DNA of 33,503 bases from Clostridiales bacterium (GCA_012511485.1 JAAZFZ010000111.1:1-33503); one strand, 5' to 3'; positions 1-13,401 are shown, counted from the stretch's first letter. The notes: generated by a model not told the origin, from the letters alone. Made by a program: numbers and translations.

Positions 1-3000
1 ATGGTGATAACCCATAATGCCTGCGTTGTAGACACCTCCACCGATTTCAACATCCGAACCGACATTGCAGCCTGTTATTATCACCTTTACATTGTTTCTT
101 CTGTTGTGCTGCCCGAAAATTCCGGAGGCAGAACTGTTATTTGCGCCATTCGAAACGATTTCAGTGTTGCCCAATACATTACAATTCTCAACAGTCATAT
201 CATTGGCTGCAGATGCTGTTCTGGCTAAAATACCTGCCGCAACTGCCCCTTCAATCCTGGAATCGTACAAATTACAGTTGCGGATTGTGCCCAAAAAGGC
301 ACCTGCAAAACCGCCCGTTATGCCGCCCTGTGTATTAGATGTTGCATTCACATTATTAACAGTAGTATTGCTTATTGAGCAGTTTTTTATAATTGAGGAG
401 GAGGTAACTGTAGCACTGCTCACGAAGCCGCCGGCAAAACCGGTCTGAGCTGTGATGCTGCTATTAGATTCCCCTGTTTTATCAAGGCTGACACCGTTTA
501 TTGTCAGAGTACCGACAGCTGTCGTAAGTGTTTGGGTTAAGCTATATAATGCACCAGCCATGCCTACAAGACCACCAACATATTCAGAACCGTTTACGCT
601 TAAATCATTGATGACCACATCCGGCTCAACAGGGTCCTGATTAGAGGCGGCACCGATTTGAAGTGTGCCGCCAGTGCTCACGAAGCTGCCGACTAACCCG
701 CCGACAAATCTTGAGGTTGGGGCAGAAACTGTTGCACCGTTTATTGTTACACCGCTGATTATGCAATGTGAATTATCAACGCCTATAATACCGGCAAATA
801 TGCCTGCGTTTGTGGTCGTAGCAGTAAGGGTTGCATTTGTGATGCTGATATCTGTAAATGAACAATCGCCTTCCATGTAGCCGACAAATATTGAAGAATA
901 GAGCCCGCTACCTGTTGAGGTGATATTGACAAAGTCAAGGTTTGAAAACGAGCAGCCGTTTCCACTCTGGAAAAACGCCACATTTTCATATGACAGAGGG
1001 TTGCCATAAGCATCATTTTCAGGGACGATATTCAGGTTGCTTATTGTGTATTTGCCCCCGCCGGGCTTTTCATCACCGAAGAAGGAGCCTTGAAATGAAG
1101 CGCGTTCGCTAATAGTTTGATAGGTGCCCATGGCTGTGAATTCATAGCCCTCCATGTCAATATCGCCACGGATAACATAATCCTCCTCGTCAAGAGTTGA
1201 ATCCGCAGCTAACTCCGGATAATTCTCATTGAGGAAAATGAGGTCGTCCCTTGTGGAAATGATATATGCATTCAACTCGAGATCCTTTGAAAGGCCGTTT
1301 AGTATATTTATTCTCGCCTTGAGCCCTGTTTGATTGTGAGTAATTGTGACTGTAGTGTTGACAACATCTCCAAGAGCTGAAAAATTAAACCTCAGAACAC
1401 TGTTGTTTGGCCCTTGAAATACGGTGGAAACATTGGACAGCATTGTGTTATCGTAGTCAATTGTCAGGTCTGAGAGCTGAACATTTTCAAAGTATTCAAT
1501 GCCCTGCGGCATATTAAGAGTAACATAGCTCGAACCGCCCGGTGCAACCGAGCCTGCACTTTCGTTGAAAGCCCACTTGACAAAACCTGTTGTTAACGGA
1601 CTGGTAGGCAACAAGGGCTGGACAGAGGTATCATCACTCTTAAAGCTCCAGTAAACATTCGAAATAACAGCTCCTGAAGCAACTGAGCCGAAAATTAAAT
1701 ATTTGAATAGTAAATCGTTGACTAAGCCCGAAGTGAAGCAGTTTGTAATGCGCGCATTGCTGCCCACCGAGCCTATAAAGCCGCCAATGGCGTTTGGTGT
1801 GCCGGGTATAGCACTAAAGCTCTCGCCTTTGAGCATATCGGATTGAGAGCCGCAATCTTCAATAATGCAGACACCACTTGCCCTTCCGGCAAAGCCGCCT
1901 ACATTTGAGCAGGACTTTCGCTCTATTATTACATCTATATCTGTCATGCAATCAGTCAGATAGCAGTTGCCTTCAATTTCATTGAGAAATGAACCTACTT
2001 CCGTTGCGGAAGTCGTCACCTTCCCGTTTGCAGTAGCATAGAGATTCACGTCGGAGAATGTGGCACTGAATGCCTTTCCGAAAATAGCTGATGATATGTT
2101 ACCGTTGAGAGTGATGTCAAGGTTACAAATATAGCCATATCTTAGGTTAGAGGCACTTGTCTTCCATGCCTCCAAGTCACTCGTATTAGAGTCCCTTTTT
2201 CCGTAAACACCTGAAAAGAGAGTTGATATCACAGTCAGTTCATGTCCGTCACCGTTAAGCGTTCCGCTAAAAGCATAGATAATCCAGCCAGAGGGCACAT
2301 TAATGTCTGCTCCCAGTTTAAAATGAGAGTATCTGGCATGTCTTATCAGGTTAAGCTCATTTGAATTTGAAATAATAATCGGGTTTTCATATGTAAGACC
2401 GGCACCCACCTCGGCGGTTAAAGTCTGCAAAACAGTGACCGTAAGCTGTTGTGAAATGACGGTTTCCTGAGCACCGATATCAGTTGGGAATTCGATATTT
2501 ACATTATAATTCACCTGATTCCATGCACCCGGATATGTTCCGGCGTCAATTTCAAATCCGCTTTGAGTTTGAGTTAAACTCATTCCCGTATCGCTGCTTA
2601 CAAGGGAGTAGCCTGCTATGGTGTCAAAGTCAATGCTTGTATTGCCCCATGTCGGGACAACATCTGTTGTTGACACAGGCACATCAGTGTCTTCAACTGC
2701 CACATTGAGTACGCTGACAGCTCTAGTCATACTATTAGTCAGCAACTGGGAATCGCTATAGGCACAGGGATTGCTCCTGCCGCTTATCTCCGCCGACCAG
2801 TAGCAGTTGGTGAGCACTCCGGATGAACCGTTTCTACCTATAACTGCACCGATATCTCTGGGCAGTGAAGGGAGCGAAACGAGCGCATAACAATTCTCAA
2901 CCACAGTGCCTGAAGAAGCCTGGCCGATTATACCGCCCGTTTGAAGATATGTATAGAATGAACCTATATTTTCATTGCCGACCTTACCCGTGGCAATACA

Positions 3001-4419
3001 TTTTGAAATTGGGCTTGTGGATGAGTTTTTGCCCACAATCCCGCCGTATATATTGAGCAAATTATCTGGCTTATAGTAATACATACCGATATCCAGCGCA
3101 CTGCAGTTTACAACTGAGCCTTCGTTTTCAGCAACAATGCCGCCAAAAACCTTCATGCCATACATATTGTAATGGGAGGCTGTCACGCTCTGGGCATTTG
3201 AGATGCGCCCCTGCACCGTGCAGTAGGACACTGTGCCGGCATTATAACCGGAAATGCCACCAACAACGCCACCCTTAGTGAAGTTATTAGTCACAGGAGT
3301 GCCTGTGCCACACATATCTACGCTGCACTTCGTAATAGTGTAGCCCGAATGGTTGTAGCCGGCTATGGCACCCGAATATGTAGAGGACGACTGGTCGTTA
3401 GTCGGGCTCGAAGGTGTTGAAGTGATTTTTATGCCCGAAATTGAAACATCGCTTATTGTGCCTTTGTTTTGCCCCGTTACACAACCTATATATTTTCTGG
3501 TACCTGTAATACTTATTGTGATATTGCTGGCTGTCACCGGGGTATTTGTACCTCCGATTGTGCCGAGGTTTGAGCCGCAAATAATGCCATATCCGGTCGG
3601 TAGCATATAACCTGAACCTATTTCAACGGATTCCGTAGTAATAGTGTTGTTGCCCGTTACCGTCAAGGAGAGGTTATTAAATTCACAGTTTGAGATTGTG
3701 CCGGCATTTTGAACAGCCAAAACTGCGCTGACAGCATTCTGCATATATGAGGTGGTGAGATTGCAGTTGATAAAACTTACATTATCAATTACCGTGTTCG
3801 AGCTCAGATAACCGAAAATGGCAGTGGTACTTCTGCCCTGGCTGGTTACATCCAAACCGCTGATTGTATAGCCGTCGCCGTCAAGTGAAAAGAATACATT
3901 TGACGGGTAACTGACAGCGTCGGCGGGATTCATTGAAATCAGTGAAGTGAAGCCGTAATAGTCCTTAAAATTGTAATCAGGGTTTAGATTGCCGCTGAAG
4001 GTAATCGGAGACAGGTCGATATCTGCAGTCAATTTAAAATACTTATCGGCTGAAGATGTATTATTGATTATAGACTGCATACCGAGAAAATCATCTAAAG
4101 TGTTAATTTGATACGGATTTTGCTGTGTACCCGTTCCCCCATTATAGTCAATAGTCAGGGATTGAACGGAATGTTTGACACGGCCGCCGCCGGTTATGAC
4201 ATTGACACCGTTACGGTCCAACTCTCCGCCCTCGGTTGTTACTTGAGCGCTTGTAGTCTTTTCGGTTTCTGATGTTGTTTTTTTCTCTTTAACTGCGGAG
4301 GTAGCTGTTGAATTCAAATCCTCCGCAGATACAATTATGGAGCTGATTCCGGTTGAAGACAGCAAAACAGATGCCGTTAACAGCATTACCATTAACCTTT
4401 TGACTATCTTTTTCTTCAT
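1..4419 (-). CDS. Giant secreted cell-surface protein with GLUG-type (parallel beta-helix) repeats; 5' end in window, 3' end runs off the left edge (>=1473 codons)
   Basis: Hand translation of the minus strand from the ATG at 4419 (GGAGG 7 nt upstream) stays open to position 1 (4419 = 3 x 1473). It is not in the ORF track, apparently because it has no stop inside the window. No listed minus-strand ORF shares its frame. N-terminus MKKKIVKRLMVMLLTASVLLSSTGISSIIVSA|ED is a classic type I signal peptide. The body is full of GLUG-like units (VGGLVGSF, YVGGLVGMAG, VGGFAGRASGVCIIEDC, IGGFIGSVGSNARITNC, GGIIGQASSGTVVENCY). There are three module starts of the type NPYxI...L..I...F.L..DID (near 4119, 2391, 1270). 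Confidence 0.8.
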   Translation of the reverse strand, partial: MKKKIVKRLMVMLLTASVLLSSTGISSIIVSAEDLNSTATSAVKEKKTTSETEKTTSAQVTTEGGELDRNGVNVITGGGRVKHSVQSLTIDYNGGTGTQQNPYQINTLDDFLGMQSIINNTSSADKYFKLTADIDLSPITFSGNLNPDYNFKDYYGFTSLISMNPADAVSYPSNVFFSLDGDGYTISGLDVTSQGRSTTAIFGYLSSNTVIDNVSFINCNLTTSYMQNAVSAVLAVQNAGTISNCEFNNLSLTVTGNNTITTESVEIGSGYMLPTGYGIICGSNLGTIGGTNTPVTASNITISITGTRKYIGCVTGQNKGTISDVSISGIKITSTPSSPTNDQSSSTYSGAIAGYNHSGYTITKCSVDMCGTGTPVTNNFTKGGVVGGISGYNAGTVSYCTVQGRISNAQSVTASHYNMYGMKVFGGIVAENEGSVVNCSALDIGMYYYKPDNLLNIYGGIVGKNSSTSPISKCIATGKVGNENIGSFYTYLQTGGIIGQASSGTVVENCYALVSLPSLPRDIGAVIGRNGSSGVLTNCYWSAEISGRSNPCAYSDSQLLTNSMTRAVSVLNVAVEDTDVPVSTTDVVPTWGNTSIDFDTIAGYSLVSSDTGMSLTQTQSGFEIDAGTYPGAWNQVNYNVNIEFPTDIGAQETVISQQLTVTVLQTLTAEVGAGLTYENPIIISNSNELNLIRHARYSHFKLGADINVPSGWIIYAFSGTLNGDGHELTVISTLFSGVYGKRDSNTSDLEAWKTSASNLRYGYICNLDITLNGNISSAIFGKAFSATFSDVNLYATANGKVTTSATEVGSFLNEIEGNCYLTDCMTDIDVIIERKSCSNVGGFAGRASGVCIIEDCGSQSDMLKGESFSAIPGTPNAIGGFIGSVGSNARITNCFTSGLVNDLLFKYLIFGSVASGAVISNVYWSFKSDDTSVQPLLPTSPLTTGFVKWAFNESAGSVAPGGSSYVTLNMPQGIEYFENVQLSDLTIDYDNTMLSNVSTVFQGPNNSVLRFNFSALGDVVNTTVTITHNQTGLKARINILNGLSKDLELNAYIISTRDDLIFLNENYPELAADSTLDEEDYVIRGDIDMEGYEFTAMGTYQTISERASFQGSFFGDEKPGGGKYTISNLNIVPENDAYGNPLSYENVAFFQSGNGCSFSNLDFVNITSTGSGLYSSIFVGYMEGDCSFTDISITNATLTATTTNAGIFAGIIGVDNSHCIISGVTINGATVSAPTSRFVGGLVGSFVSTGGTLQIGAASNQDPVEPDVVINDLSVNGSEYVGGLVGMAGALYSLTQTLTTAVGTLTINGVSLDKTGESNSSITAQTGFAGGFVSSATVTSSSIIKNCSISNTTVNNVNATSNTQGGITGGFAGAFLGTIRNCNLYDSRIEGAVAAGILARTASAANDMTVENCNVLGNTEIVSNGANNSSASGIFGQHNRRNNVKVIITGCNVGSDVEIGGGVYNAGIMGYHH

Positions 4420-4503
4420 TTTGCTACCTCCGGCGAAATAATGTATGTAAAGTATATAAGCTTTACGGATTATTATTGCAGGTTGAGTTTAAATATTGCT
4501 GTT

Positions 4504-6279
4504 TTACCCCACATCATTTGAACTCTTTTTATCCTGCTCTGCTTTTATTTTAGCTATGCGCTCTCTTTCGCGCTGACGCTGCTTTGCCTTTGCAGCTCTT
4601 TCTTTTTCAAGCTGTGCGGCCTTTAGTCTATCAAGGCGTTCCTTTTCACGCTGTTTTGCCTTTGCAGCCCTCTCTTTTTCAAGCTGTGCGGCCTTTTCTC
4701 TGGCAAGGCGTTCCTTTTCACGCTGTTTTGCCTTTGCAGCCCTTTCTTTTTCAAGCTGTGCGGCCTTCTGTCTTTCTATGCGTTCCTTTTCACGCTGCTT
4801 TGCCTTTGCAGCTTTTTCTTCCTCGAGAGCCCTGAGCTTCTCTGCACGCTCTTTTTCCCTTTGAAGCCTTGCTTTCTCTTTGGCTTTTGCAAGCTTCTCT
4901 GCTTCTATTGCCTTCTGCTTCGCTATGCGTGCTCTCTCTCTCTCTTTTGCCGCCTTTTCTTTTGCAAGAGCTTTTTCTTTCTCTTGCTTTGCCTTGAGAG
5001 CGGCCTTCTGTTTTGCTATGCGCTCTTTTTCACGAGCTTTTTCACGGGCAATTCTTGCAGCCTCACGCTCTTTTTTGCGTTTCTCAATTTCTTTCTTACG
5101 CTGAATTTCAGCCTTAATACGAGCTTCAATCGCTGCCTTGCGCGCTTTTTCAGATTCGAGTGCTCTGTTAATTGCAGCCTTAATTCTCTCCTCGCCTGCA
5201 ATTTTCTTCTTGCTTGCTCGCTTAACTTCATCCAGGAAAATTCGCCTGATTTCGACCTCTTCAAGATCATAATCAATCACAAACTCTTCGGCAAGGCGTT
5301 TGAGAATTTTGGGCTTGATTTTGCGCTGCTTGACCTTGCCTTTTATTAACTCCGGATGCAGAGAATTATTTTTAAGCAACATATAATTGACCGCAACCTG
5401 CTTATAAAGCTCGTCACGGGTTTCGTCGGTTACCATTTCATTGCTCTCTTTTGAGACAATTTCATAGCCGACTTCATCATAGGCTGAAATGAACTGCCAA
5501 AGATTAAGGCAAGCCTTGAAGTTCGGATCCTTGCTGATAATATTTGTCCTCATAATGGGAGGGCGCACGGGAGTACATCCGTGTAGCTCATTAATAAATG
5601 AGGAACGCGCAAATTCATTAACAATGCCTTTAATTCTCTCAATTCTCTGAAATGCCGATGCCTGCTTTGTATCTTTAACACTTGAATCAATCTTTTCTTT
5701 TTCCTGTGAGGACTGTGTTGAAATCTCGAGCTTATATGAAATTTTTTCCCTTCCGTTTGCAATATCGCTTTCCATTTTCAGCGATGTCATATTCTCGTTA
5801 TCGGAAAGGCCGAAAAGAACATTATAGCGAGCATCAATGAACCGTTGAAGATTCATCATTAGTGTATAGATAAAACGATTTTCGTATATTTCATAGCTTT
5901 CTTCACGGAATACATTTAGAATCTGGCTGGGAGTAACTCTGTCATCATCGACCCTTGCTATCAAATTTGTATGCTGCGCGAGGTGACGCACCGACTCTGC
6001 GGTTATCTTTCTAGCGCGCTCGATAGGAACTATTTCTTCCTCCTGAACGATAAACTTGCGGGGATTCCTTATTATCGTATCTAAGGGAATAATACATTCT
6101 TCAATTGCATCTACCCAACGCAAATCAATGTTCTTTTCAAAATACTTGCTGAACAATGATAATCTATTATTCCCGCGTTCGGTAACATCAAGGATGTGCT
6201 CATAAAAGTCATTACCTTCCATGAGGGACGATATGCTCTCTTTATATTCGTTATATAAATCCTTGTATGATTTTTCCAT
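4504..6279 (-). CDS. McrC/DUF2357-like N-terminal domain protein without a recognisable nuclease domain, carrying a ~230-aa C-terminal E/R/K/A-rich helix
   Basis: 591-aa ORF, GGAAGGGA RBS, starts 34 nt after the McrB-like gene. N-terminal ~330 aa contain RKFIVQEEEIVPIERARKITAESVRHLAQH ... ESYEIYENRFIYTLMMNL, which resembles the McrC N-domain/DUF2357 pattern as I remember it. Residues ~355-585 are almost only E/K/R/A/Q. No PD-(D/E)xK-like motif found by eye. Confidence 0.85.
   Translation of the reverse strand: MEKSYKDLYNEYKESISSLMEGNDFYEHILDVTERGNNRLSLFSKYFEKNIDLRWVDAIEECIIPLDTIIRNPRKFIVQEEEIVPIERARKITAESVRHLAQHTNLIARVDDDRVTPSQILNVFREESYEIYENRFIYTLMMNLQRFIDARYNVLFGLSDNENMTSLKMESDIANGREKISYKLEISTQSSQEKEKIDSSVKDTKQASAFQRIERIKGIVNEFARSSFINELHGCTPVRPPIMRTNIISKDPNFKACLNLWQFISAYDEVGYEIVSKESNEMVTDETRDELYKQVAVNYMLLKNNSLHPELIKGKVKQRKIKPKILKRLAEEFVIDYDLEEVEIRRIFLDEVKRASKKKIAGEERIKAAINRALESEKARKAAIEARIKAEIQRKKEIEKRKKEREAARIAREKAREKERIAKQKAALKAKQEKEKALAKEKAAKERERARIAKQKAIEAEKLAKAKEKARLQREKERAEKLRALEEEKAAKAKQREKERIERQKAAQLEKERAAKAKQREKERLAREKAAQLEKERAAKAKQREKERLDRLKAAQLEKERAAKAKQRQRERERIAKIKAEQDKKSSNDVG
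4570..4830. repeat. About 3.5 tandem copies of a 72-bp (24-codon) unit inside the E/R/K tail coding region
   Basis: The string tttgcctttgcagc recurs at 4583, 4655, 4727 and 4799 (exact 72-nt period). The encoded unit is AAQLEKERAAKAKQREKERLxRxK. Confidence 0.85.
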
Positions 6280-6313
6280 GTATATAGTCCCTTCCTTCGA
6301 TTGTAGGCATTAT

Positions 6314-7864
6314 TTAGATAAGCTTCTGGAGTCTTTCAAGATAATCCTTGGACTCTTTCATATTCGATTTGCCAAAGTTCTTATTAAGATATGTAATCAA
6401 ACCGCCGATTTCATCACGGATGAATGAAAGGTTGAGTGACTCAAATTTACGCAGAATCTTGTGGCAAAGCAAAAAGTCAAGTCCGTCAATTTCAGTGCCG
6501 CCGCAGCCTACATATGAGGGTATGAAATCGGTTAGCTGCTTTACAATACGGTTACCGAACGCCAAACGGAAATGTTCGATAACATAGTCATCAAGCTCGG
6601 CAAGCTTTCTTAGGCTTTCTTCGGAAACCTTGTATTTGACCTTTGACTCTCTGAACATCTCTTCAAGATGCTTATAGTTGAGTGATAAATTTTCAGTCCA
6701 CGGGGCGTCGAAATACTTACCCTTTGAGTTAATGTCTATCGGAATGGCACGGTCATAAACCTTATCGGTAACTGCGAATGTCGAGTCATCGTTATTGATT
6801 GTGCCGACATACCACATATTTTCGGTAAGTCGGAGCTTGCCGTCAAACGAATGCTTAGGGCCAGTAGGCCAAACAGAGGGTACAAGGCTGTCAACCCACG
6901 CATCACGACTTGGCATTTCAAGAATTGAAAGCATTTCAGCAAAGTAATACTCAACACGGGCGATGTTCATTTCATCAAGGATTGTAACGAAAATATCCTC
7001 TTTATATGTAGCTTCATACATCTTTTTAAGAACTTCCGTTTCATTGAAGCGTTTTGTAAATTCATTGAAGTAACCGAAAAGCTCGGTGCGGTCACGCCAG
7101 GAAGGCTGGACTGATGCAATAGTGGCGTCGTTTTTGAGGAATTTACCAAATGCATAAGGAAGCGAAGTTTTACCGGTACCGGAAATACCCTGAAGGATAA
7201 TGAGCCTTGTTGTGGAAAAGGCGGCCAGGAACAGGCGTATGATTTTATGGTCGTAATACAGCCCCATCCTTGAGCTCGCATAGTTGCGGAACATATCAAC
7301 GATTTCAGGCAATGTAATATCGTTGTTGTAATCGGGCGGCTCATAGTTCTCAAGGGCAAGGTCAACCTGGGTCAGCTTATAGAAACGGCTGAAATCCTCA
7401 TTGGTCGCATCCGTATCTGCGCCCTCGCCTTCCTCTTCGCCCTCCTGAGTCTCATCGATGAACGGGCTTTCACCCGGCCGAAGGCCGAGCTGTGAAACCT
7501 TCATAGCAAGGATTTTCTCCTTCTCGGTTGTGAGCTTTATTACCTCTCTGTTAAGAGTAGCAACTTCGTTAAGAAGTTCTTCCTGGTCTACAACTGTTTT
7601 GTGGAACCTGACATACTTCTTGATAAGAAGAACAATAAGCCAGATTATGCCAGCCAGAACAGCTAAAACAATAATAATGGATAGAATTGCCAAAATCCAT
7701 GTTCCTGCTGAGAATTCGTCTTTCCATTGACTAAAGACATCAATATATTTCGGGATGTTAAAGATATTTTTGATTCCCACACCGATACCTTTAATTATTC
7801 CCCATATGCCCTCAACAAAAAACTGGCTCAAAAAATCTTCCAAGAACTTAATTAGAGCTCCCAT
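6314..7864 (-). CDS. Membrane-anchored McrB-family AAA+ GTPase (AAA_5-like)
   Basis: 516 aa. Strongly hydrophobic helix TWILAILSIIIVLAVLAGIIWLIVLLI followed by KKYVRFHK, then a coiled-coil-like segment and the acidic linker EEGEEEGEGADTD. Walker A GISGTGKTS (7163-7189) and Walker B/McrB signature ILDEMNIARVEYYFAEMLSILE. VGTINNDDSTFAVTDKVYDRA corresponds to the McrB GTMNTADRS...RRF block (NxxD). Confidence 0.85.
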   Translation of the reverse strand: MGALIKFLEDFLSQFFVEGIWGIIKGIGVGIKNIFNIPKYIDVFSQWKDEFSAGTWILAILSIIIVLAVLAGIIWLIVLLIKKYVRFHKTVVDQEELLNEVATLNREVIKLTTEKEKILAMKVSQLGLRPGESPFIDETQEGEEEGEGADTDATNEDFSRFYKLTQVDLALENYEPPDYNNDITLPEIVDMFRNYASSRMGLYYDHKIIRLFLAAFSTTRLIILQGISGTGKTSLPYAFGKFLKNDATIASVQPSWRDRTELFGYFNEFTKRFNETEVLKKMYEATYKEDIFVTILDEMNIARVEYYFAEMLSILEMPSRDAWVDSLVPSVWPTGPKHSFDGKLRLTENMWYVGTINNDDSTFAVTDKVYDRAIPIDINSKGKYFDAPWTENLSLNYKHLEEMFRESKVKYKVSEESLRKLAELDDYVIEHFRLAFGNRIVKQLTDFIPSYVGCGGTEIDGLDFLLCHKILRKFESLNLSFIRDEIGGLITYLNKNFGKSNMKESKDYLERLQKLI

Positions 7865-7940
7865 ACTTAGTCCACCTTCTCAATTTGTTTTTGTAATAAT
7901 ATTGCTATAGTTAACACTAATAAATCCTTAACAGCAACCG

Positions 7941-8693
7941 TTATCCGCCGTTATCTTCAAACGATGTACCTGTCTTCTCCTGCCCGGTTTCTTCTTGCGC
8001 CGGGACTGTCTGCGGTTGTGAATCCGCATTCTGCAGCTTTTGCTGCTGAGCAAGATATTCGGCAATCACCCTATCCTTTTCTTCCTCTGTTTTGGATGCA
8101 ATCTCCTCGAGCGCTCTTTCTTTTTTGCTTTCAATTAATGTAATTATGAATTTATATAGCTGAAAGGCAAACAGTAGTGCAAGCGGAACAACAATGCAGA
8201 CCAAAAAGCCTTTCGGAGAGCTTAGAAAATCCAAAACCATGCCGAGGTTGCTGATTTTTTTGCCTGTCCATAGGCCGACAATATAGTCGGGTGACAGCTC
8301 GTCAACATCTGACTCTTTATTATGGTCGCCTCGAGTAACATAGGTAATTACTGTTTGATTATAAATTTCAAATCGTGTTTCCTTTTTTTCGATAATTCTG
8401 TGAGTGTTGAGAAATCTGCTTTTATTGTCCGGCGAGTATTTCCAGAAGGTGACAACATCACCCTTTTTTAGGGTTTCGGGGTTGCAGTCCATATCAATAA
8501 TGAGGTCGCCCTTCTCAAATACGCCGGACATTGAATCGGACTGAACAGAAAGAAATGAATACCCGAACAGCTTGGGCACTCCGCTATCCCTCGAGGAAAA
8601 CGCCATAACAGTAACGGCAACCGAAAAAATAATTATTATGAAAATTGCAATGTCTCCAAGTACACTTAACGCCTTTCTTGCTTTGTCATTCAT
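7941..8693 (-). CDS. sipW: Signal peptidase I, SipW/ER-archaeal type, with extra C-terminal TM helix and acidic tail
   Basis: N-terminal TM, SVQSDSMSGVFEKGD (catalytic Ser box), GDVV, and LNTHRIIEK (His box typical of SipW-type Ser/His peptidases). Lies next to a protein with a SipW-cognate signal peptide. Confidence 0.85.
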   Translation of the reverse strand: MNDKARKALSVLGDIAIFIIIIFSVAVTVMAFSSRDSGVPKLFGYSFLSVQSDSMSGVFEKGDLIIDMDCNPETLKKGDVVTFWKYSPDNKSRFLNTHRIIEKKETRFEIYNQTVITYVTRGDHNKESDVDELSPDYIVGLWTGKKISNLGMVLDFLSSPKGFLVCIVVPLALLFAFQLYKFIITLIESKKERALEEIASKTEEEKDRVIAEYLAQQQKLQNADSQPQTVPAQEETGQEKTGTSFEDNGG

Positions 8694-8985
8694 AGGATTT
8701 ACACCTCATTATTGTTTCAATATCAAAGGTCATTAAAACTTTGAAAAAGGCTCTCAAAGCATTAATCGCCTTTGATGCCTGCCACGGGCGGCGGCGCCGC
8801 CGCCCGTGAATTTTATTTGTGCAGTAGGAGCCATTCATAAACGGCCCCAAAGTTAGCTAACAACGAGGGCGATTTATGAACCGCCCCTACCAAAGAGAAT
8901 GGGGAGATTGGGGAGTTGTATGGGGCGGGGCGACCGCCCCATACTAATTTCAATAATTTGCAAAAAATCTTTACTTTGATTTAAC
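8694..8985 (-). promoter_or_regulatory. 292-nt GC-rich, highly structured intra-operon spacer between the TasA-like gene and sipW (attenuator/processing/stabiliser candidate)
   Basis: Perfect 26-nt palindrome CACGGGCGGCGGCGCCGCCGCCCGTG (8783-8808). 10-bp hairpin TATGGGGCGG-ggcga-CCGCCCCATA (8919-8943). A third GGGGCGG copy on the minus strand (8881-8889) could pair alternatively with CCGCCCC. TTCATAAA/TTTATGAA arms (8834-8841 / 8873-8880). ATCAAAGG/CCTTTGAT arms nearer sipW. Confidence 0.5.
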
Positions 8986-9777
8986 TTAGGGGGAAGGTTC
9001 CTCGTCAGGAATAAAGTTGAGGAGGAGATTGATACCGACTGTGCCGCCGCTATATGAACCTTGACATTGGGCATCCTGACCTTCAATCCAAACTCTGACA
9101 GTAATGCTCTGAGTCCCTGCATCAGTAAAAACAAGTTCGTATGAGTCGATAAGTCCTGATTGGATTGTGGTGGGCGTAACATGGGCCGCAGTCTGGGCAA
9201 TACCGTTCAAAGCCTCTGTTGAAGTTACGTCAGAGTTTATTGCATTATAAGCACCGTTGCTATCCGCCGCATAGATTTTTGTTCCTTCTGAATCAGTGAT
9301 AGAAGCATAGGCAATAGTAGCAGTGTTAAGACCGCTAATTGAGCTTTCGCTTCCAGTGCCCTGAGTGAATTGAACCGTACCGGGTTTGCCGACACGCAGG
9401 TTCAAATCAAACTCAAGGTAATCAGCATTAGCTGTTGCAGTACCCATTGTTATTACATCATCGGCAAGTGAACCCTTTCTGAAAGACAGCGTGTCATCTC
9501 CTAGTCTTAAAGCGTCAACAGGTGCGAAATTCAGTGCAGAGAGATCAAGTTCCTTAACAGTTTCAAAGTGTTCCTCTGTGATTGTTGAAAACCAATCCAC
9601 ATTGTTTAGTGAGAGCTCAAGACCGCTCTGAGCTGCTACTCTTACATCAAGATTTTCGACTCTTGCTGAATTGCTCATTGAAAACCATGCATAGGTTGCT
9701 GATGTCAAAACAATTGCAGAAACAACAAGCATTGCAACTGCTGACAAAAGAGAACGCTTTTTCATTGACTTTTTCAT
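8986..9777 (-). CDS. Secreted TasA/camelysin-like protein with SipW-cognate class signal peptide
   Basis: 263 aa. MKKSMKKRSLLSAVAMLVVSAIVLTSATYAWFSMS matches the SipW-dependent signal peptide pattern (T-x-A-x-F-S). GGAGGAAAAC RBS. Adjacent to sipW. Confidence 0.75.
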   Translation of the reverse strand: MKKSMKKRSLLSAVAMLVVSAIVLTSATYAWFSMSNSARVENLDVRVAAQSGLELSLNNVDWFSTITEEHFETVKELDLSALNFAPVDALRLGDDTLSFRKGSLADDVITMGTATANADYLEFDLNLRVGKPGTVQFTQGTGSESSISGLNTATIAYASITDSEGTKIYAADSNGAYNAINSDVTSTEALNGIAQTAAHVTPTTIQSGLIDSYELVFTDAGTQSITVRVWIEGQDAQCQGSYSGGTVGINLLLNFIPDEEPSP

Positions 9778-9901
9778 ATGTTTTCCTCCGAATAAAAAAT
9801 TTTGAATGCTTATCAGCGTTCAATTAAATATATATCCTTAAAGTGTGTGCGAATCCGGGTGGCTGCAAGTTGGATTCCGCCTTACCCGTGCAGTGTCTCC
9901 C

Positions 9902-10729
9902 CTACGCCTGCACGGCGCTTGCGGCTTCTTCCTCCAAAACATTGAAGTTCATGGAAAGCTTGCATTCGCCTCCCAGGATTTCGTCCACACATTCTGGATC
10001 CCATCCTTCAAGCCAGATGACAACAGTGTACTTATCCACATCACCGGCTTCAAAGTTTTTCCTTATGTCTTCGCAAACCTTTAAATCCGACTTAAAAAGC
10101 TGGTCTATTGCAAACATTGCATATTGATTATTTATGTCGCGCGGGCGTTTGCCGTAAACGGTAGGCTTGCCGTTCCTAAACAACATGACCCTGATTGCAT
10201 CGTCAACACCCTTTGTGTAGGAATCAATGTCAATGCTCATATAGTAGTCAATAGTATCCTTGCCGCTGTTTTTAATATAAAAGGTATAGGCAATATTGTT
10301 TGTGCCGTTGTGGCTTCCGTTGACATTATCAAGCTCCTGAATTGACTTATATGTAGGGTCACTGGAAATATAATTGCCTGAAGTTTTCGGGTCATTTGTG
10401 AGCCATTCTTTGGTAATGTTCGTCATATTCTCAACTGCAGAACCCTGCAGCATAATTGTCGGGTCGCCAAAATCAGGGCTTTCGCAAATTGAAATTCCCT
10501 TCTCCTTAAAGGCATCAGGGTCCAGGTTAACTGTAAAACGACCTGCCTTATTAACAAAACTGACGCAGGCAAAGCTGATTGACATTATCAGCAAAAGCAA
10601 CAAAAGAACAACGAGCAGCAGCTCTATCATCTGATTTCTTTTGCTAACCTGCTTAGCGGTTACACGAACCTCTCTGCGTGCCCCTCCGGCAACAGCCGCC
10701 TTAGGCTCACTCGCTTGCTTTCGGCTCAA
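9902..10729 (-). CDS. Membrane-anchored TasA-like paralogue (possible TapA-like anchor/assembly factor); TTG start
   Basis: 275 aa. Charged N-terminus, poly-Leu TM (IELLLVVLLLLLLIMSISFACVSF), AYTFYIKNSGKDTIDY (TasA-like F.F.N.G strand). Its C-terminal block VVIWLEGWDPEC...LSMNFNVLEEE parallels VRVWIEGQDAQC...LLLNFIPDEE of the 263-aa neighbour. Confidence 0.7.
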   Translation of the reverse strand: MSRKQASEPKAAVAGGARREVRVTAKQVSKRNQMIELLLVVLLLLLLIMSISFACVSFVNKAGRFTVNLDPDAFKEKGISICESPDFGDPTIMLQGSAVENMTNITKEWLTNDPKTSGNYISSDPTYKSIQELDNVNGSHNGTNNIAYTFYIKNSGKDTIDYYMSIDIDSYTKGVDDAIRVMLFRNGKPTVYGKRPRDINNQYAMFAIDQLFKSDLKVCEDIRKNFEAGDVDKYTVVIWLEGWDPECVDEILGGECKLSMNFNVLEEEAASAVQA

Positions 10730-10749
10730 AGCTACTCAGCTCCTTTCAG

Positions 10750-11502
10750 TTAATTAATCTTAATCTGTCTCTCGGCAATAGGCTTACCGTAATAAGGACC
10801 CTTCATCTGGTCAACGCCCATTGCCCGAAGCAGGGCAGCTTTTTCTTCATTGTCAACACCGTCAACCTTAACCTTTGTTTCGATTTTTTTCGCAAAATCA
10901 ATTATGCCCTGAACAACATTTTGCGCCCGCTCGTTTTCAAGTATTCCGTCAAGCAGGCTTGCATGAACCCCAATATAATCCACCTTATAATGACTCAAAT
11001 GAGTAAGAGAAGTGAACTCAACCCCAAAATCGTCAATTGAAACTAAAAAGCCGAACTCCCTGGCGTCATTAATGTTTTTAATAACCTGCTCCTTTGTGTT
11101 ATCAAGGATGCTCTCATTTATGTTGAAACAAAACTTATCAGGGTCAATCTGCTTTTTCTCGATGATTTTTTTTGCCTGATTAAGAAAGTAATTTTTTGCA
11201 AGATATTTGACTGAAATCGGAACTATAATACGGTTAATAAATACATCACGATTTGCGCATCTCGTTATTGCGTCACAGCACTCTTCAATTGCCCATTTAT
11301 CTATTTCACAAATCTGATTTGATTTTTGTGCAATGGGCATAAACTTTTCGGGCAGGAGTACGCCGAGTTGCCTGTCGTTTATCTGCATACTGATTTCATA
11401 ATCAATTGCCATATTCAGATGAACATCAAACACCGGCTGATAAAAAATCTCAATCGCTCTTAAACGAGAACCACGGCTGACTGCCGTTTTGTTTTCTTGC
11501 AT
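10750..11502 (-). CDS. Stand-alone EAL-domain protein, apparently catalytically degenerate
   Basis: 250 aa. IFYQPVF, YEISMQ (in place of EALxR), SIDDFGVEFTSL (DDFG box), VDGVDNEE (in place of EGVE), KGPYYGKP (in place of QGxxFxxP). GAGGAG RBS. Confidence 0.75.
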   Translation of the reverse strand: MQENKTAVSRGSRLRAIEIFYQPVFDVHLNMAIDYEISMQINDRQLGVLLPEKFMPIAQKSNQICEIDKWAIEECCDAITRCANRDVFINRIIVPISVKYLAKNYFLNQAKKIIEKKQIDPDKFCFNINESILDNTKEQVIKNINDAREFGFLVSIDDFGVEFTSLTHLSHYKVDYIGVHASLLDGILENERAQNVVQGIIDFAKKIETKVKVDGVDNEEKAALLRAMGVDQMKGPYYGKPIAERQIKIN

Positions 11503-11597: not shown

Positions 11598-11626
11598 ACT
11601 TTACCATGAGAGGATAAAATTGTCAA
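11598..11626 (-). promoter_or_regulatory. Candidate sigma-A promoter of the EAL/TasA-like/sipW cluster
   Basis: Minus strand TTGACA (11626-11621), 17-nt spacer, TGG-TAAAGT extended -10 (11603-11598). ~90-nt leader inside a 349-nt AT-rich gene-free region. Confidence 0.45.
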
Positions 11627-11851: not shown

Positions 11852-12841
11852 CTATTCTTTTTTCGGGAAAAGTATTGAGCATTTCTCTCTGATATTCTGC
11901 ATTACTTCGCTCACATCGAGAGCAAGGCCGCGCGCATAATTATACTTATGACGGTATGCTTCTCTCTGCGTGATGTAGAGATAAAAGGCCTTCGCTTCAT
12001 AGCCCATCAGCTTTGTTTTTGGGGTATACCCGCAGATAGTTGCCCGACTCCCGTCATGGCGGCAAATCTCAATATTTTGAAGCTGTGAAATTGACCCGAC
12101 AGTAATTGTCCCCTCGTCACCTAGTATCTGAGAGCCGCTGTAGCTCTGCGCAAGTTTTGAGTATGTAAGGGTAACCTGCTTGTCGCTGAAATCGAAAATA
12201 GTTGAGCCATAACCGTCCGCTCCGGTTTTTATGAAGCCTGCCGAGGATGATATTTTTTGCGGGATTCCCAAAAAATCAAGTGCAGGATAGACGCAGTAAA
12301 TGCCCAAGTCCATTAAGCAGCCTCCCGCAAATTTCGGGTTAAAAACATTGGGCAACTCCCCTCGTTTATACTGAGCATATCTGGATGAAAACTGCGAATA
12401 ATCAAAGTGGGCGCTGGTTATCTTCCCTATTCTTTTTATGGAGTTTATCAAAAGCTCTCTGGCGGGAGAATAGAGGTACATTATTGCCTCCATATAAACC
12501 AGCCCTTTCTCTTCCGCTATACACTCTAGCTCTCTGAGCTCTTCGGGCGTAACTGTTATCGGCTTTTCGCAGATGACATGTTTGCCATTTTCAAGCATCA
12601 GCTTTGACTGCTCATAGTGAAGGGAATTGGGGCTTGCAACATAAACGGCATCAATATCTGAGGATGCAAAGCTTTCAATATTGGTATAAACAACGGGAGA
12701 ACCAAATTTTTGTGCAAAATCCTCACCCCTGCGCTCAGTGCGTGAATACACTGCCGCAAGCTTGAGTCCGTCAACATCCTGCGCTCCGATGATAAATTCC
12801 TCGGTGATTTTTCCGGTGCCTATCACGCCGTATCTTATCAT
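11852..12841 (-). CDS. Gfo/Idh/MocA-family NAD(P)-dependent oxidoreductase
   Basis: MIRYGVIGTGKITEEF Rossmann N-terminus, EKP motif (HVICEKPI), 329 aa. Its ATG overlaps the upstream stop (TAATG). Confidence 0.85.
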   Translation of the reverse strand: MIRYGVIGTGKITEEFIIGAQDVDGLKLAAVYSRTERRGEDFAQKFGSPVVYTNIESFASSDIDAVYVASPNSLHYEQSKLMLENGKHVICEKPITVTPEELRELECIAEEKGLVYMEAIMYLYSPARELLINSIKRIGKITSAHFDYSQFSSRYAQYKRGELPNVFNPKFAGGCLMDLGIYCVYPALDFLGIPQKISSSAGFIKTGADGYGSTIFDFSDKQVTLTYSKLAQSYSGSQILGDEGTITVGSISQLQNIEICRHDGSRATICGYTPKTKLMGYEAKAFYLYITQREAYRHKYNYARGLALDVSEVMQNIREKCSILFPKKE

Positions 12842-13401
12842 TACATCAGCTCCAGACCCATCACGACAGAACCTGAAACTGTCGCAATTTTTTTGAAACC
12901 GTATTTTTGGTAAAAGCTAATCCCCTTTTCGTTCTTTGCGCCGACCACGAGCATGAGCCCCCTAATTTTTTTCTGCTTGAGGTGATTGACAAGGGTATCC
13001 ATAAGCTGAGTTCCAAGACCCATTCGCTGGTATTCGGGCAGAATATCGATATGCATATGCGCAGGATAAAAGCCTGCGTATCTTTTTGTTATCATTGCCG
13101 ACGCCTTCGCAAGCATCGCCTTGAATGTCCCGCATTTTTTAATTATGGGATAATATTTTTCAAAAAAGTTTTTCTCATACCTTGAATAGTTTTCGGCGCA
13201 GATTATGTAGCCCACTGCATTATCGTCATCATCAACTGCCACAAAACAATTCTGAGGCTCGCACTCAACATAATAATTGCAGAAGGTATTAATTATGGCT
13301 TTCCGCTCAACCTCGGTTTTTTTTCTCATATCAGTTGTTTTCAGGCAGATGCTTCTGACACTGTCAATATCGCTTCTTTCATATGGCCTTATTCCCGGCA
13401 T
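12841..13401 (-). CDS. GNAT-family N-acetyltransferase
   Basis: 186 aa. QRMGLGTQLMDTLVNHLK (acetyl-CoA binding Q/RxxGxG/A motif), YQKYGF near the C-terminus. Confidence 0.8.
   Translation of the reverse strand: MPGIRPYERSDIDSVRSICLKTTDMRKKTEVERKAIINTFCNYYVECEPQNCFVAVDDDDNAVGYIICAENYSRYEKNFFEKYYPIIKKCGTFKAMLAKASAMITKRYAGFYPAHMHIDILPEYQRMGLGTQLMDTLVNHLKQKKIRGLMLVVGAKNEKGISFYQKYGFKKIATVSGSVVMGLELM

Follow-up and report, generated by a model that had tools for sequence, protein, structure and literature searches.

What does a GTPase of the McrB family, to which McrBC, the textbook GTP-dependent restriction motor, also belongs, do beside a signal peptidase and a set of secreted proteins? The question is raised by a 33,503-nucleotide (nt) stretch of DNA from a Clostridiales bacterium (GCA_012511485.1, JAAZFZ010000111.1:1–33503; here called the window), in which positions 1–11502 are filled by seven open reading frames (ORFs), all on the minus strand. 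Read in the direction of transcription, they specify an EAL protein, a membrane-anchored protein and a secreted paralogue of it (the two subunits), a SipW-type signal peptidase, an AAA+ GTPase of the McrB family, its McrC-type partner, and a giant surface protein. The answer that we prefer, and regard as the probable one, is that the locus encodes a GTP-driven machine, modulated by cyclic di-GMP (c-di-GMP), by which a fibre or adhesin of the cell surface is processed and assembled. A preliminary description, made from the sequence alone, had proposed a fibre/adhesin assembly locus with an energy-consuming component; of that proposal, the nucleoside triphosphatase (NTPase) pair has turned out, by synteny, to be a true part of the locus, but neither the TasA-type nature of the fibre nor a working EAL enzyme could be upheld.

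The cluster is one conserved unit and not a chance neighbourhood. The window proteins were compared by BLASTP with the ORFs of 48 related, species-level loci that had enough flanking sequence (individual loci are denoted by L numbers). All 48 have a SipW-type peptidase gene together with the AAA+ gene; in 46 the partner gene is directly beside the AAA+ gene (AAA+ first), and in the other two it is just downstream, with one gene between. The subunit family was recovered at BLAST level in 41 loci, and the remaining seven encode different small secreted proteins, one family of which has an A-W-F signal end. The EAL gene (24/48) and the giant-adhesin gene (19/48) are clade-specific accessories and not core. 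The same seven-gene order was found on the contigs of three AAA+ homologues, and the gene order is common to L001–L004. A reverse search of metagenomes, starting from the membrane subunit, gave a matching picture: all 11 loci in which the homologue of this subunit was at least 43% identical and enough downstream sequence was present carry sipW, the AAA+ gene and the partner gene alongside, and several more distant loci (35–41% identical; L121, L125, L129, L130) also have the AAA+ gene.

Homologues of the AAA+ protein number in the thousands. The best 120 clusters are 59–99% identical to it (all but one at least 71%), and those among them that carry a name are all called 'hypothetical'. Scanning GTDB at one genome per species gave at least 589 confirmed matches, the best 80 of which belong to Acutalibacteraceae, Oscillospiraceae, Ruminococcus, Christensenellaceae, Lachnospiraceae, several Bacilli, Erysipelotrichaceae and Mycoplasmatota bins. 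The AAA+/partner pair has the GC content and codon usage of its neighbours and, because the gene order is conserved across genomes as well, it is integral to the locus. The grouping of the genes into one unit in the preliminary description is thus borne out by gene order, the arrangement being conserved in dozens of independent genomes. A strain-specific insertion of the pair with deviant GC content and codon usage, which by that description would have told against its proposal, is rejected by the synteny, the conserved flanks and the composition, and so is a defence island.

These data bear directly on the most conventional explanation, in which a classical, self-assembling TasA/TapA/SipW operon would be the chance neighbour of an unrelated McrBC-like pair and an equally unrelated adhesin gene. 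Such an arrangement is already contradicted by the presence of the AAA+/partner pair with SipW at all 48 loci, in fixed order and across classes, and the composition gives no sign of an insertion; we consider it very improbable. Its appeal lies in the placing of a SipW-type peptidase beside proteins with a TasA-like signal end (T-[YF]-A-[WF]-F), to which we return with the subunits themselves.

The AAA+ protein (516 amino acids (aa); 6314–7864) matches McrB in the PDB (6hz4, E = 1.8e-5) over residues 205–409 and the NCBIfam McrB model (3.8e-6), and an AAA_5 match was obtained for 25 of 25 family members. It has a transmembrane (TM) segment at residues 63–81, a coiled-coil-like heptad segment at about 90–125, an acidic linker and then the GTPase domain, with the motifs GTGKTS (Walker A), DEMN and INNDD. 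In the last of these, N357 and D359 are invariant among 25 homologues, and conservation is 90% or higher at N358 and D360, which is consistent with an NxD signature without proving it, as INNDD can also be read as NxxD in an ungapped alignment to Escherichia coli McrB. As to FtsB/DivIC homology of the N-terminus, only FtsL-type matches (FtsL_2/FtsL) below the cutoff were obtained (13 of 25 members, best E 0.011).

The partner (591 aa; 4504–6279) is, by its domain content, a nuclease-less McrC homologue. Residues 1–380 match Pfam DUF2357, which is the N-terminal domain of McrC, with an E-value of 1.5e-10 and 41.2 bits (cutoff 23.3), as do 33 of 34 partner orthologs. A Pfam scan of the full-length protein was empty because its lysine- and glutamate-rich tail masks the match, and a search of the partner profile against PDB sequences gave noise only. 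The helical tail of 261 aa is composed largely of K (21%), E (19%), A (20%) and R (14%); it had no Pfam match and no PD-(D/E)xK nuclease, and no TM segment was found in the partner. Part of it, of the EKERAAKAKQREKERL type, is encoded by a 72-nt tandem repeat (4576–4820, minus strand; 3.4 copies and 90% matches by Tandem Repeats Finder), and this repeat is the reason for the strong AT skew at 4–5.5 kb. Across lineages the tail varies from 0 to about 900 aa, and in Bacilli-type loci the partner, at about 370 aa, is DUF2357 alone.

In solved McrBC complexes the ring formed by McrB takes up the N-terminal part of McrC, which stimulates the hydrolysis of GTP. The window pair resembles E. coli McrBC (PDB 6hz4, 6ut6) in combining a McrB-family AAA+ GTPase with a partner that has a DUF2357 N-terminal domain. 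It differs in that the DNA-binding N-domain is replaced by a TM segment and coiled coil, the PD-(D/E)xK nuclease is absent, the signature is N-N-D-D with an invariant third position, and the context is a conserved chromosomal one rather than a defence island.

This ancestry suggests a second explanation, that of a McrBC-derived membrane anti-phage or conflict system related to CoCoNuT, in which the GTPase pair would sense infection and the secreted proteins would remodel or shed the surface or act as effectors. Besides the family membership of the GTPase, it can draw on a match to the PADLOC candidate system PDC-M26A (3.6e-39; GTPase domain only), on the prediction of sister clades as defence systems (Bell et al., PMC11090510), and on the hypervariable secreted subunit, which would also suit an arms race over phage receptors. 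Yet no nuclease, HEPN, DNA-binding or RNA-binding domain was found anywhere in the locus, the PADLOC scan gave no match for the partner or the other components, and SipW with structural-looking secreted proteins is always present. Defence islands are patchy and fast-evolving, but here the GTPase is 55–83% identical across orders of Clostridia and Bacilli, the flanks are conserved in relatives, and the neighbours are housekeeping genes of the same composition. We therefore judge a defence role to be quite unlikely. No mention of PDC-M26 was found in the literature.

The core association has been named before. In one paragraph of their study, Bell et al. 2024 (eLife, PMC11090510) introduced CoCoPALM as a large clade of McrB GTPases of the NxD type, in which the NxD is usually followed by E or D; they are fused to a TM segment and coiled coil resembling FtsB, the McrB and the McrC homologue each have a coiled coil, and genes of the signal-peptidase family are associated with them; its treatment was deferred by the authors to a later paper (PMC11090510). 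The window locus appears to have four of these five features, and for the fifth, the FtsB-like N-terminus, the similarity is sub-threshold, with a TM segment and coiled coil present. It shares with CoCoPALM a McrB-family GTPase with an N-terminal TM segment, coiled coil and N-x-D(-D) signature, an adjacent nuclease-free DUF2357 McrC homologue with a coiled-coil tail, and a constant signal-peptidase neighbour. It is not wholly new, since the core association already has a name, and is a member of a known, uncharacterised system. What goes beyond the published paragraph, compared with the main text and two supplement files, is the beta-sandwich family, its anchored paralogue, the peptidase tail, the EAL/PilZ link and the giant adhesins; CoCoPALM is not mentioned in those two supplement files. 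No later or follow-up paper on CoCoPALM was found, and the one literature co-mention of SipW, TasA and McrB that was found is merely an E. coli genotype.

The peptidase (250 aa; 7941–8693) matches TIGR02228, the archaeal/ER-type signal peptidase I family that includes SipW, at 72.2 bits (cutoff 51.85). Against the SipW equivalog model it scores 7.4e-26 and 90.9 bits and, because this is below the model's cutoff of 190, it is not a strict SipW ortholog. Ser54, His98 and Asp123 are kept in 73 of 82 upstream peptidase copies of related loci. The protein has N- and C-terminal TM segments, the latter followed by a charged cytoplasmic tail of 65 aa that Bacillus subtilis SipW lacks, and its orthologs reach 547 aa.

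Upstream of the peptidase gene are the genes of two beta-sandwich proteins. The secreted subunit (263 aa; 8986–9777) and the membrane, or anchor, subunit (275 aa, with a TTG start; 9902–10729) are homologous (hhalign 98.2%, E 3e-14). A signal end of the form [ST]-A-[ST]-[YF]-A-W-F-[ST] is near-universal in the secreted family; in the window it reads SATYA|WFS, with TYAWFS at residues 28–33, and it fits type-I cleavage after Y-A, as judged from the motif. The anchor subunit has a basic cytoplasmic N-tail, one TM segment (38–56) and a predicted extracellular domain with the motif W-x-E-G-x-D-P-E-C, and gave no Pfam or PDB sequence match. AlphaFold2 (AF2) models were confident for both: all-beta for the secreted subunit (pLDDT, the predicted local distance difference test, 85.4; predicted template modelling score (pTM) 0.81), and a helix at 25–59 followed by a beta-sandwich for the anchor (pLDDT 86.6). 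As had been noticed at the outset, the locus combines a SipW-type peptidase with a secreted protein whose signal end is of the SipW type and with a paralogue of that protein anchored in the membrane. The motif W-x-E-G-x-D-x-x-C is invariant in both subunit families and contains their only invariant Cys; the C-terminal motif sites are at 9003–9095 in the secreted-subunit gene (residues 228–258) and at 9965–10015 in the anchor gene (residues 239–255). A lipobox (F-A-C) in the anchor was also considered, and dropped because distant orthologs do not have the Cys. In one Ruminococcus/Eubacteriales clade (L011, L013–L015, L024) the anchor orthologs are about double in length (559–617 aa), with an insertion after the TM segment.

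Like tapA-sipW-tasA of B. subtilis and sipW-bsaA-bsaB-bsaC of Clostridium perfringens, the locus places a SipW-type peptidase beside secreted proteins ending in T-[FYW]-A-[FWA]-F, with several paralogous substrates of which one is membrane-associated; BsaA oligomers, too, are membrane-anchored (PMC11580942). The secreted signal end resembles that of TasA (...GTWA|AFND). The classical-operon explanation can also point to one family member annotated by the Joint Genome Institute (JGI) with a SipW-like signal peptide, and to weak matches of TIGR04088, the SipW-cognate signal model, which were obtained for 4 of 91 members with a best E of 0.0027. Unlike the products of the TasA and Bsa operons, however, the window subunits have no detectable TasA/Peptidase_M73 sequence or fold, and the SipW has its extra charged tail. 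Pfam Peptidase_M73 was matched by 0 of 91 family members, and no Pfam match was obtained for either window subunit; the family profiles found nothing relevant in the PDB, though TasA (8aur and 5of1) is present there; hhalign of the family with TasA gave a probability of 0.4%, a weak test as the TasA side was a single, verified sequence; and no TasA, camelysin or archaeal bundling-pilus entry was among the top 50 Foldseek PDB matches of either model. TasA homology was accordingly rejected on all these lines (Pfam/NCBIfam, PDB profile search, hhalign, and Foldseek on the two AF2 models), and the preliminary naming of the pair as TasA-like proteins is abandoned. Since no TasA relationship could be shown, the two subunits are treated here as a putative new beta-sandwich family.

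The top PDB matches of both models in Foldseek were pilins of the FimA type, which are donor-strand pilins, and modules of the PA14 type, and the template modelling (TM) scores were low throughout. For the secreted model the best was FimA (5nkt; 9.2e-5, probability 1.0, TM-scores 0.28/0.43), and FimA variants are also among the top matches for the anchor model. The likeness to chaperone-usher pilins ends there: the TM-scores are low, sequence similarity is nil, chaperone and usher genes are absent, and the hosts are monoderm. The family itself is large, with 7612 clusters at 50% identity (E<=1e-3) in a profile search of 1.84 billion representative proteins, and no bridge to an annotated family appeared among the best 150 matches. 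From one to more than four paralogues occur per locus, and the secreted member evolves fast: its identity to the L100 counterpart is just 37%, compared with 88% for EAL, 84% for the anchor, 72% for SipW, 91% for the GTPase, 88% for the partner and 74% for the giant protein. The 263-aa secreted protein is the candidate for a major fibre subunit.

The 292-nt gap 3′ of the secreted-subunit gene contains two GC-rich stem-loops (8783–8941, minus strand). A 101-nt fold of this region has a free energy of −40.9 kcal/mol (z = −3.2), and a strong hairpin (defined as −20 kcal/mol or lower per 50 nt) is found at the same position in 25 of the 48 loci, the sequence itself being unconserved. Reading the sequence revealed no T-run after the stem-loops on the coding strand, so the hairpins are not canonical terminators and that assignment was rejected; the second stem-loop (8783–8808) has a T-run on the plus strand only, where no gene ends. 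They could possibly act as an attenuator or as a stabiliser of the mRNA 3′ end. A hairpin 3′ of the gene is a pattern known after highly expressed major-subunit genes.

If a fibre is made, what could control it? The EAL protein (250 aa; 10750–11502) is a stand-alone domain that matches Pfam EAL over its full length (1.4e-49). At ten catalytic and binding positions, the residues of MorA (4rni), E/R/N/E/E/D/D/K/E/Q, are replaced in the window by E/Q/P/N/E/D/D/G/D/K, that is, with the substitutions R to Q, N to P, E to N, K to G, E to D and Q to K. Almost every one of some 30 EAL orthologs linked to such loci also has the changes K to G and E to N. Because most catalytic residues, including the Lys, have been lost, the protein is not expected to be an active phosphodiesterase, and at best it is likely to be a c-di-GMP sensor or adaptor. 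The best evidence for a real second-messenger input is that three different c-di-GMP-related proteins recurrently replace each other directly upstream of the anchor subunit: the clade of the window has a degenerate EAL protein there, L032 and L040 have HD_5-EAL fusions (L034 encodes a similar, EAL-matching protein of 467 aa), and L145 has a PilZ protein (PF07238, 40.1 bits, cutoff 22.5). From these gene arrangements a c-di-GMP input to the locus is plausible, and of the preliminary label 'c-di-GMP-linked' the link can be kept while the working enzyme cannot.

The last gene (1–4419) encodes more than 1473 aa of the giant protein and runs past the left end of the window. The fragment has a Sec-type signal and a GLUG/IgA-protease-N-like region, its match to GLUG being 18.3 bits, under the cutoff of 20.5. 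Among its orthologs (L011:13906–21072, L014, L015, L016, L017, L022, L026), that of L011 matches Peptidase_M26_N (31.3 bits, cutoff 27.7), and a domain scan of that of L016 gave no GLUG or Peptidase_M26_N match. Complete orthologs are 696–2399 aa long and have a Sec-type signal, no LPXTG motif, no TM segment, and a conserved C-terminus, W-G-x-R-S-x-W-x-x-I-G-K. In relatives the complete giant gene is followed by one for a small A-W-F subunit (about 150–210 aa) and, where the locus sequence extends far enough (L016, L022, L026), by a second SipW; judging from these, the window locus probably continues beyond coordinate 1. At other loci the large neighbours are BspA-LRR plus CBM2 proteins. From its features, the giant protein looks like clade-specific, adhesin-like cargo.

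One may ask, then, whether the giants are not the true business of the locus. The apparatus would in that case serve their export, anchoring or quality control, with the GTPase extracting or handing over large Sec substrates and the beta-sandwich proteins being accessory, chaperone-like or anchors. Most loci do encode at least one protein of 0.9–2.6 thousand residues (of the GLUG type, of the BspA-LRR/CBM2 type, or from the subunit family, which has long members), and the shared C-terminal motif of the giant orthologs, which have neither LPXTG nor TM segment, could dock elsewhere. But the window's giant family is found at a minority of the loci, the high-GC loci described below hold subunits with no giant gene nearby, and it is the small subunits that are more universal, multi-copy and hypervariable, as polymer subunits should be. 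We think this reading unlikely, although it may overlap with the assembly of a fibre that carries such proteins.

The preferred reading, a GTP-driven assembly machine, could work as follows. Sec would export the secreted subunits, whose signal peptides would keep them in the membrane until SipW cuts after Y-A; the freed subunits would polymerise onto the membrane-anchored paralogue, possibly by strand complementation, and the resulting surface fibre would carry or present large proteins of an adhesin-like kind, here the giant GLUG-type protein. A membrane platform would consist of the GTPase ring, with TM helices and stalks as its tether, the McrC-type charged rod, and the peptidase tail, which could contact these two. 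Through it the hydrolysis of GTP would be coupled to the processing or extraction of subunits or to the dynamics of the fibre. Control dependent on c-di-GMP, comparable to that by FimX-PilZ-PilB, would come from the degenerate EAL protein, the gene of which lies 20 nt upstream of the anchor gene. The signs that point to a fibre are the fast-evolving secreted subunit, its multiple paralogues, the recurrent hairpin, the adhesin-like giants and the weak pilin matches.

An analogy, in its manner of working only, is the type IV pilus, which in Xanthomonas is under c-di-GMP control through FimX-PilZ-PilB. There, as is proposed here, major and minor subunits share a conserved hydrophobic N-terminus and have a peptidase of their own, and a hexameric NTPase in the cytoplasm, at the membrane, acts together with a degenerate EAL/PilZ receptor for c-di-GMP. 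The window proteins have no homology to PilB, PilC or PilD, however, the NTPase is a McrB-type GTPase, and a type I (SipW-like) peptidase should remove the hydrophobic segment instead of leaving it in the subunit.

Several observations weigh against the proposal. About 25 high-GC (0.55–0.64) contigs from human gut encode PilZ, an anchor-type subunit and at least two secreted subunits, with SipW and AAA+ genes absent within 10 kb, and the low-GC locus L127 has four SipW genes and no AAA+ gene in 16.9 kb. Because of such loci, subunits do not always need an adjacent motor and are not always physically linked to one; the motor may be elsewhere or dispensable. Its role is also left unexplained by precedent, since TasA-type and chaperone-usher fibres assemble with no need of a cytoplasmic nucleoside triphosphate (NTP), and we know of no NTPase in classical TasA-type fibre operons. 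The pilin likeness in Foldseek is weak and could reflect a generic beta-sandwich, the arginine of EALxR, a contact to c-di-GMP, is replaced by Gln in the window's EAL protein, and the McrBC ancestry together with the PADLOC match keeps a conflict or defence role conceivable. No experiments on any CoCoPALM member were found, and no fibre has been seen. An example of the high-GC arrangement is L145:8973–13550 (similar among L123–L162), with PilZ, an anchor-type subunit and two A-W-F subunits, and three to four more subunits about 5 kb further on.

The locus has a compact layout. The gaps between genes, recomputed from the end of the EAL gene to that of the giant gene, are 20, 124, 292, 76, 34 and 84 nt, and these, the seven genes, their strand and a promoter candidate all agree with what was first described. 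The candidate, predicted from a consensus match (10/12), is sigma-70-like, TTGACA-17-TAAAGT with a TG before the −10 element (11598–11626, minus strand), and is situated in the AT-rich spacer of 349 nt between the EAL gene and one for a GFO/IDH/MocA oxidoreductase. The oxidoreductase gene and one for a GNAT acetyltransferase are upstream of the locus, at 11852–13401, and both keep their flanking position in relatives with 81–91% AAA+ identity (L001, L007, L086, L093, L100), which indicates that the whole neighbourhood is vertically inherited. The rest of the window is ordinary housekeeping chromosome, with genes for ProRS, PurL, an ABC-F protein, phosphoglycerate mutase, mannitol dehydrogenase and a radical-SAM protein.

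A metagenomic contig of 12.8 kb (LSQX01235792.1, L085) is 99–100% identical to the window genes from gnat through partner and presumably represents the same organism; the closest species-level genome is a Clostridia metagenome-assembled genome (MAG) from goat caecum (L005), with 83% AAA+ identity. Loci of the Bacilli/Erysipelotrichaceae type (L053, L063, L066, L067, L069, L076, L082) have the same GTPase/partner/SipW core and other accessories. These are a giant protein of about 1.3–2.0 thousand residues, small secreted proteins of three families whose signal ends are of the ...Y-A-K-Y type, and, encoded directly upstream of the GTPase, a protein of about 340 aa that looks cytoplasmic; none of these accessories had a Pfam match.

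What makes the locus of interest is that a McrBC ring-plus-plug core is found here with no nucleic-acid module at all, and appears to be fixed in the membrane beside a signal peptidase and secreted structural proteins. That the GTPase sequence is 55–83% identical across hundreds of species of gut Firmicutes suggests that it has an important cellular job. If that job is the assembly of a fibre or adhesin, the locus would represent a new way to power the biogenesis of surface structures in Gram-positive bacteria, a new family of hypervariable surface antigens in abundant, uncultured gut lineages (Acutalibacteraceae, Oscillospiraceae, Ruminococcus, Christensenellaceae, uncultured Bacilli), and an added target for c-di-GMP signalling in Clostridia. 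It could be speculated, and we offer this wider idea only tentatively, that CoCoPALM loci in general are unrecognised, NTP-driven surface-filament machines of monoderms, in which a GTPase ring, a rod and a SipW-like peptidase assemble, retract or gate a beta-sandwich polymer under the control of c-di-GMP. If true, a McrBC motor would here have a first job that does not involve nucleic acids, and the filament would be a new type of pilus, one that is common in uncultured gut Clostridia and Bacilli.

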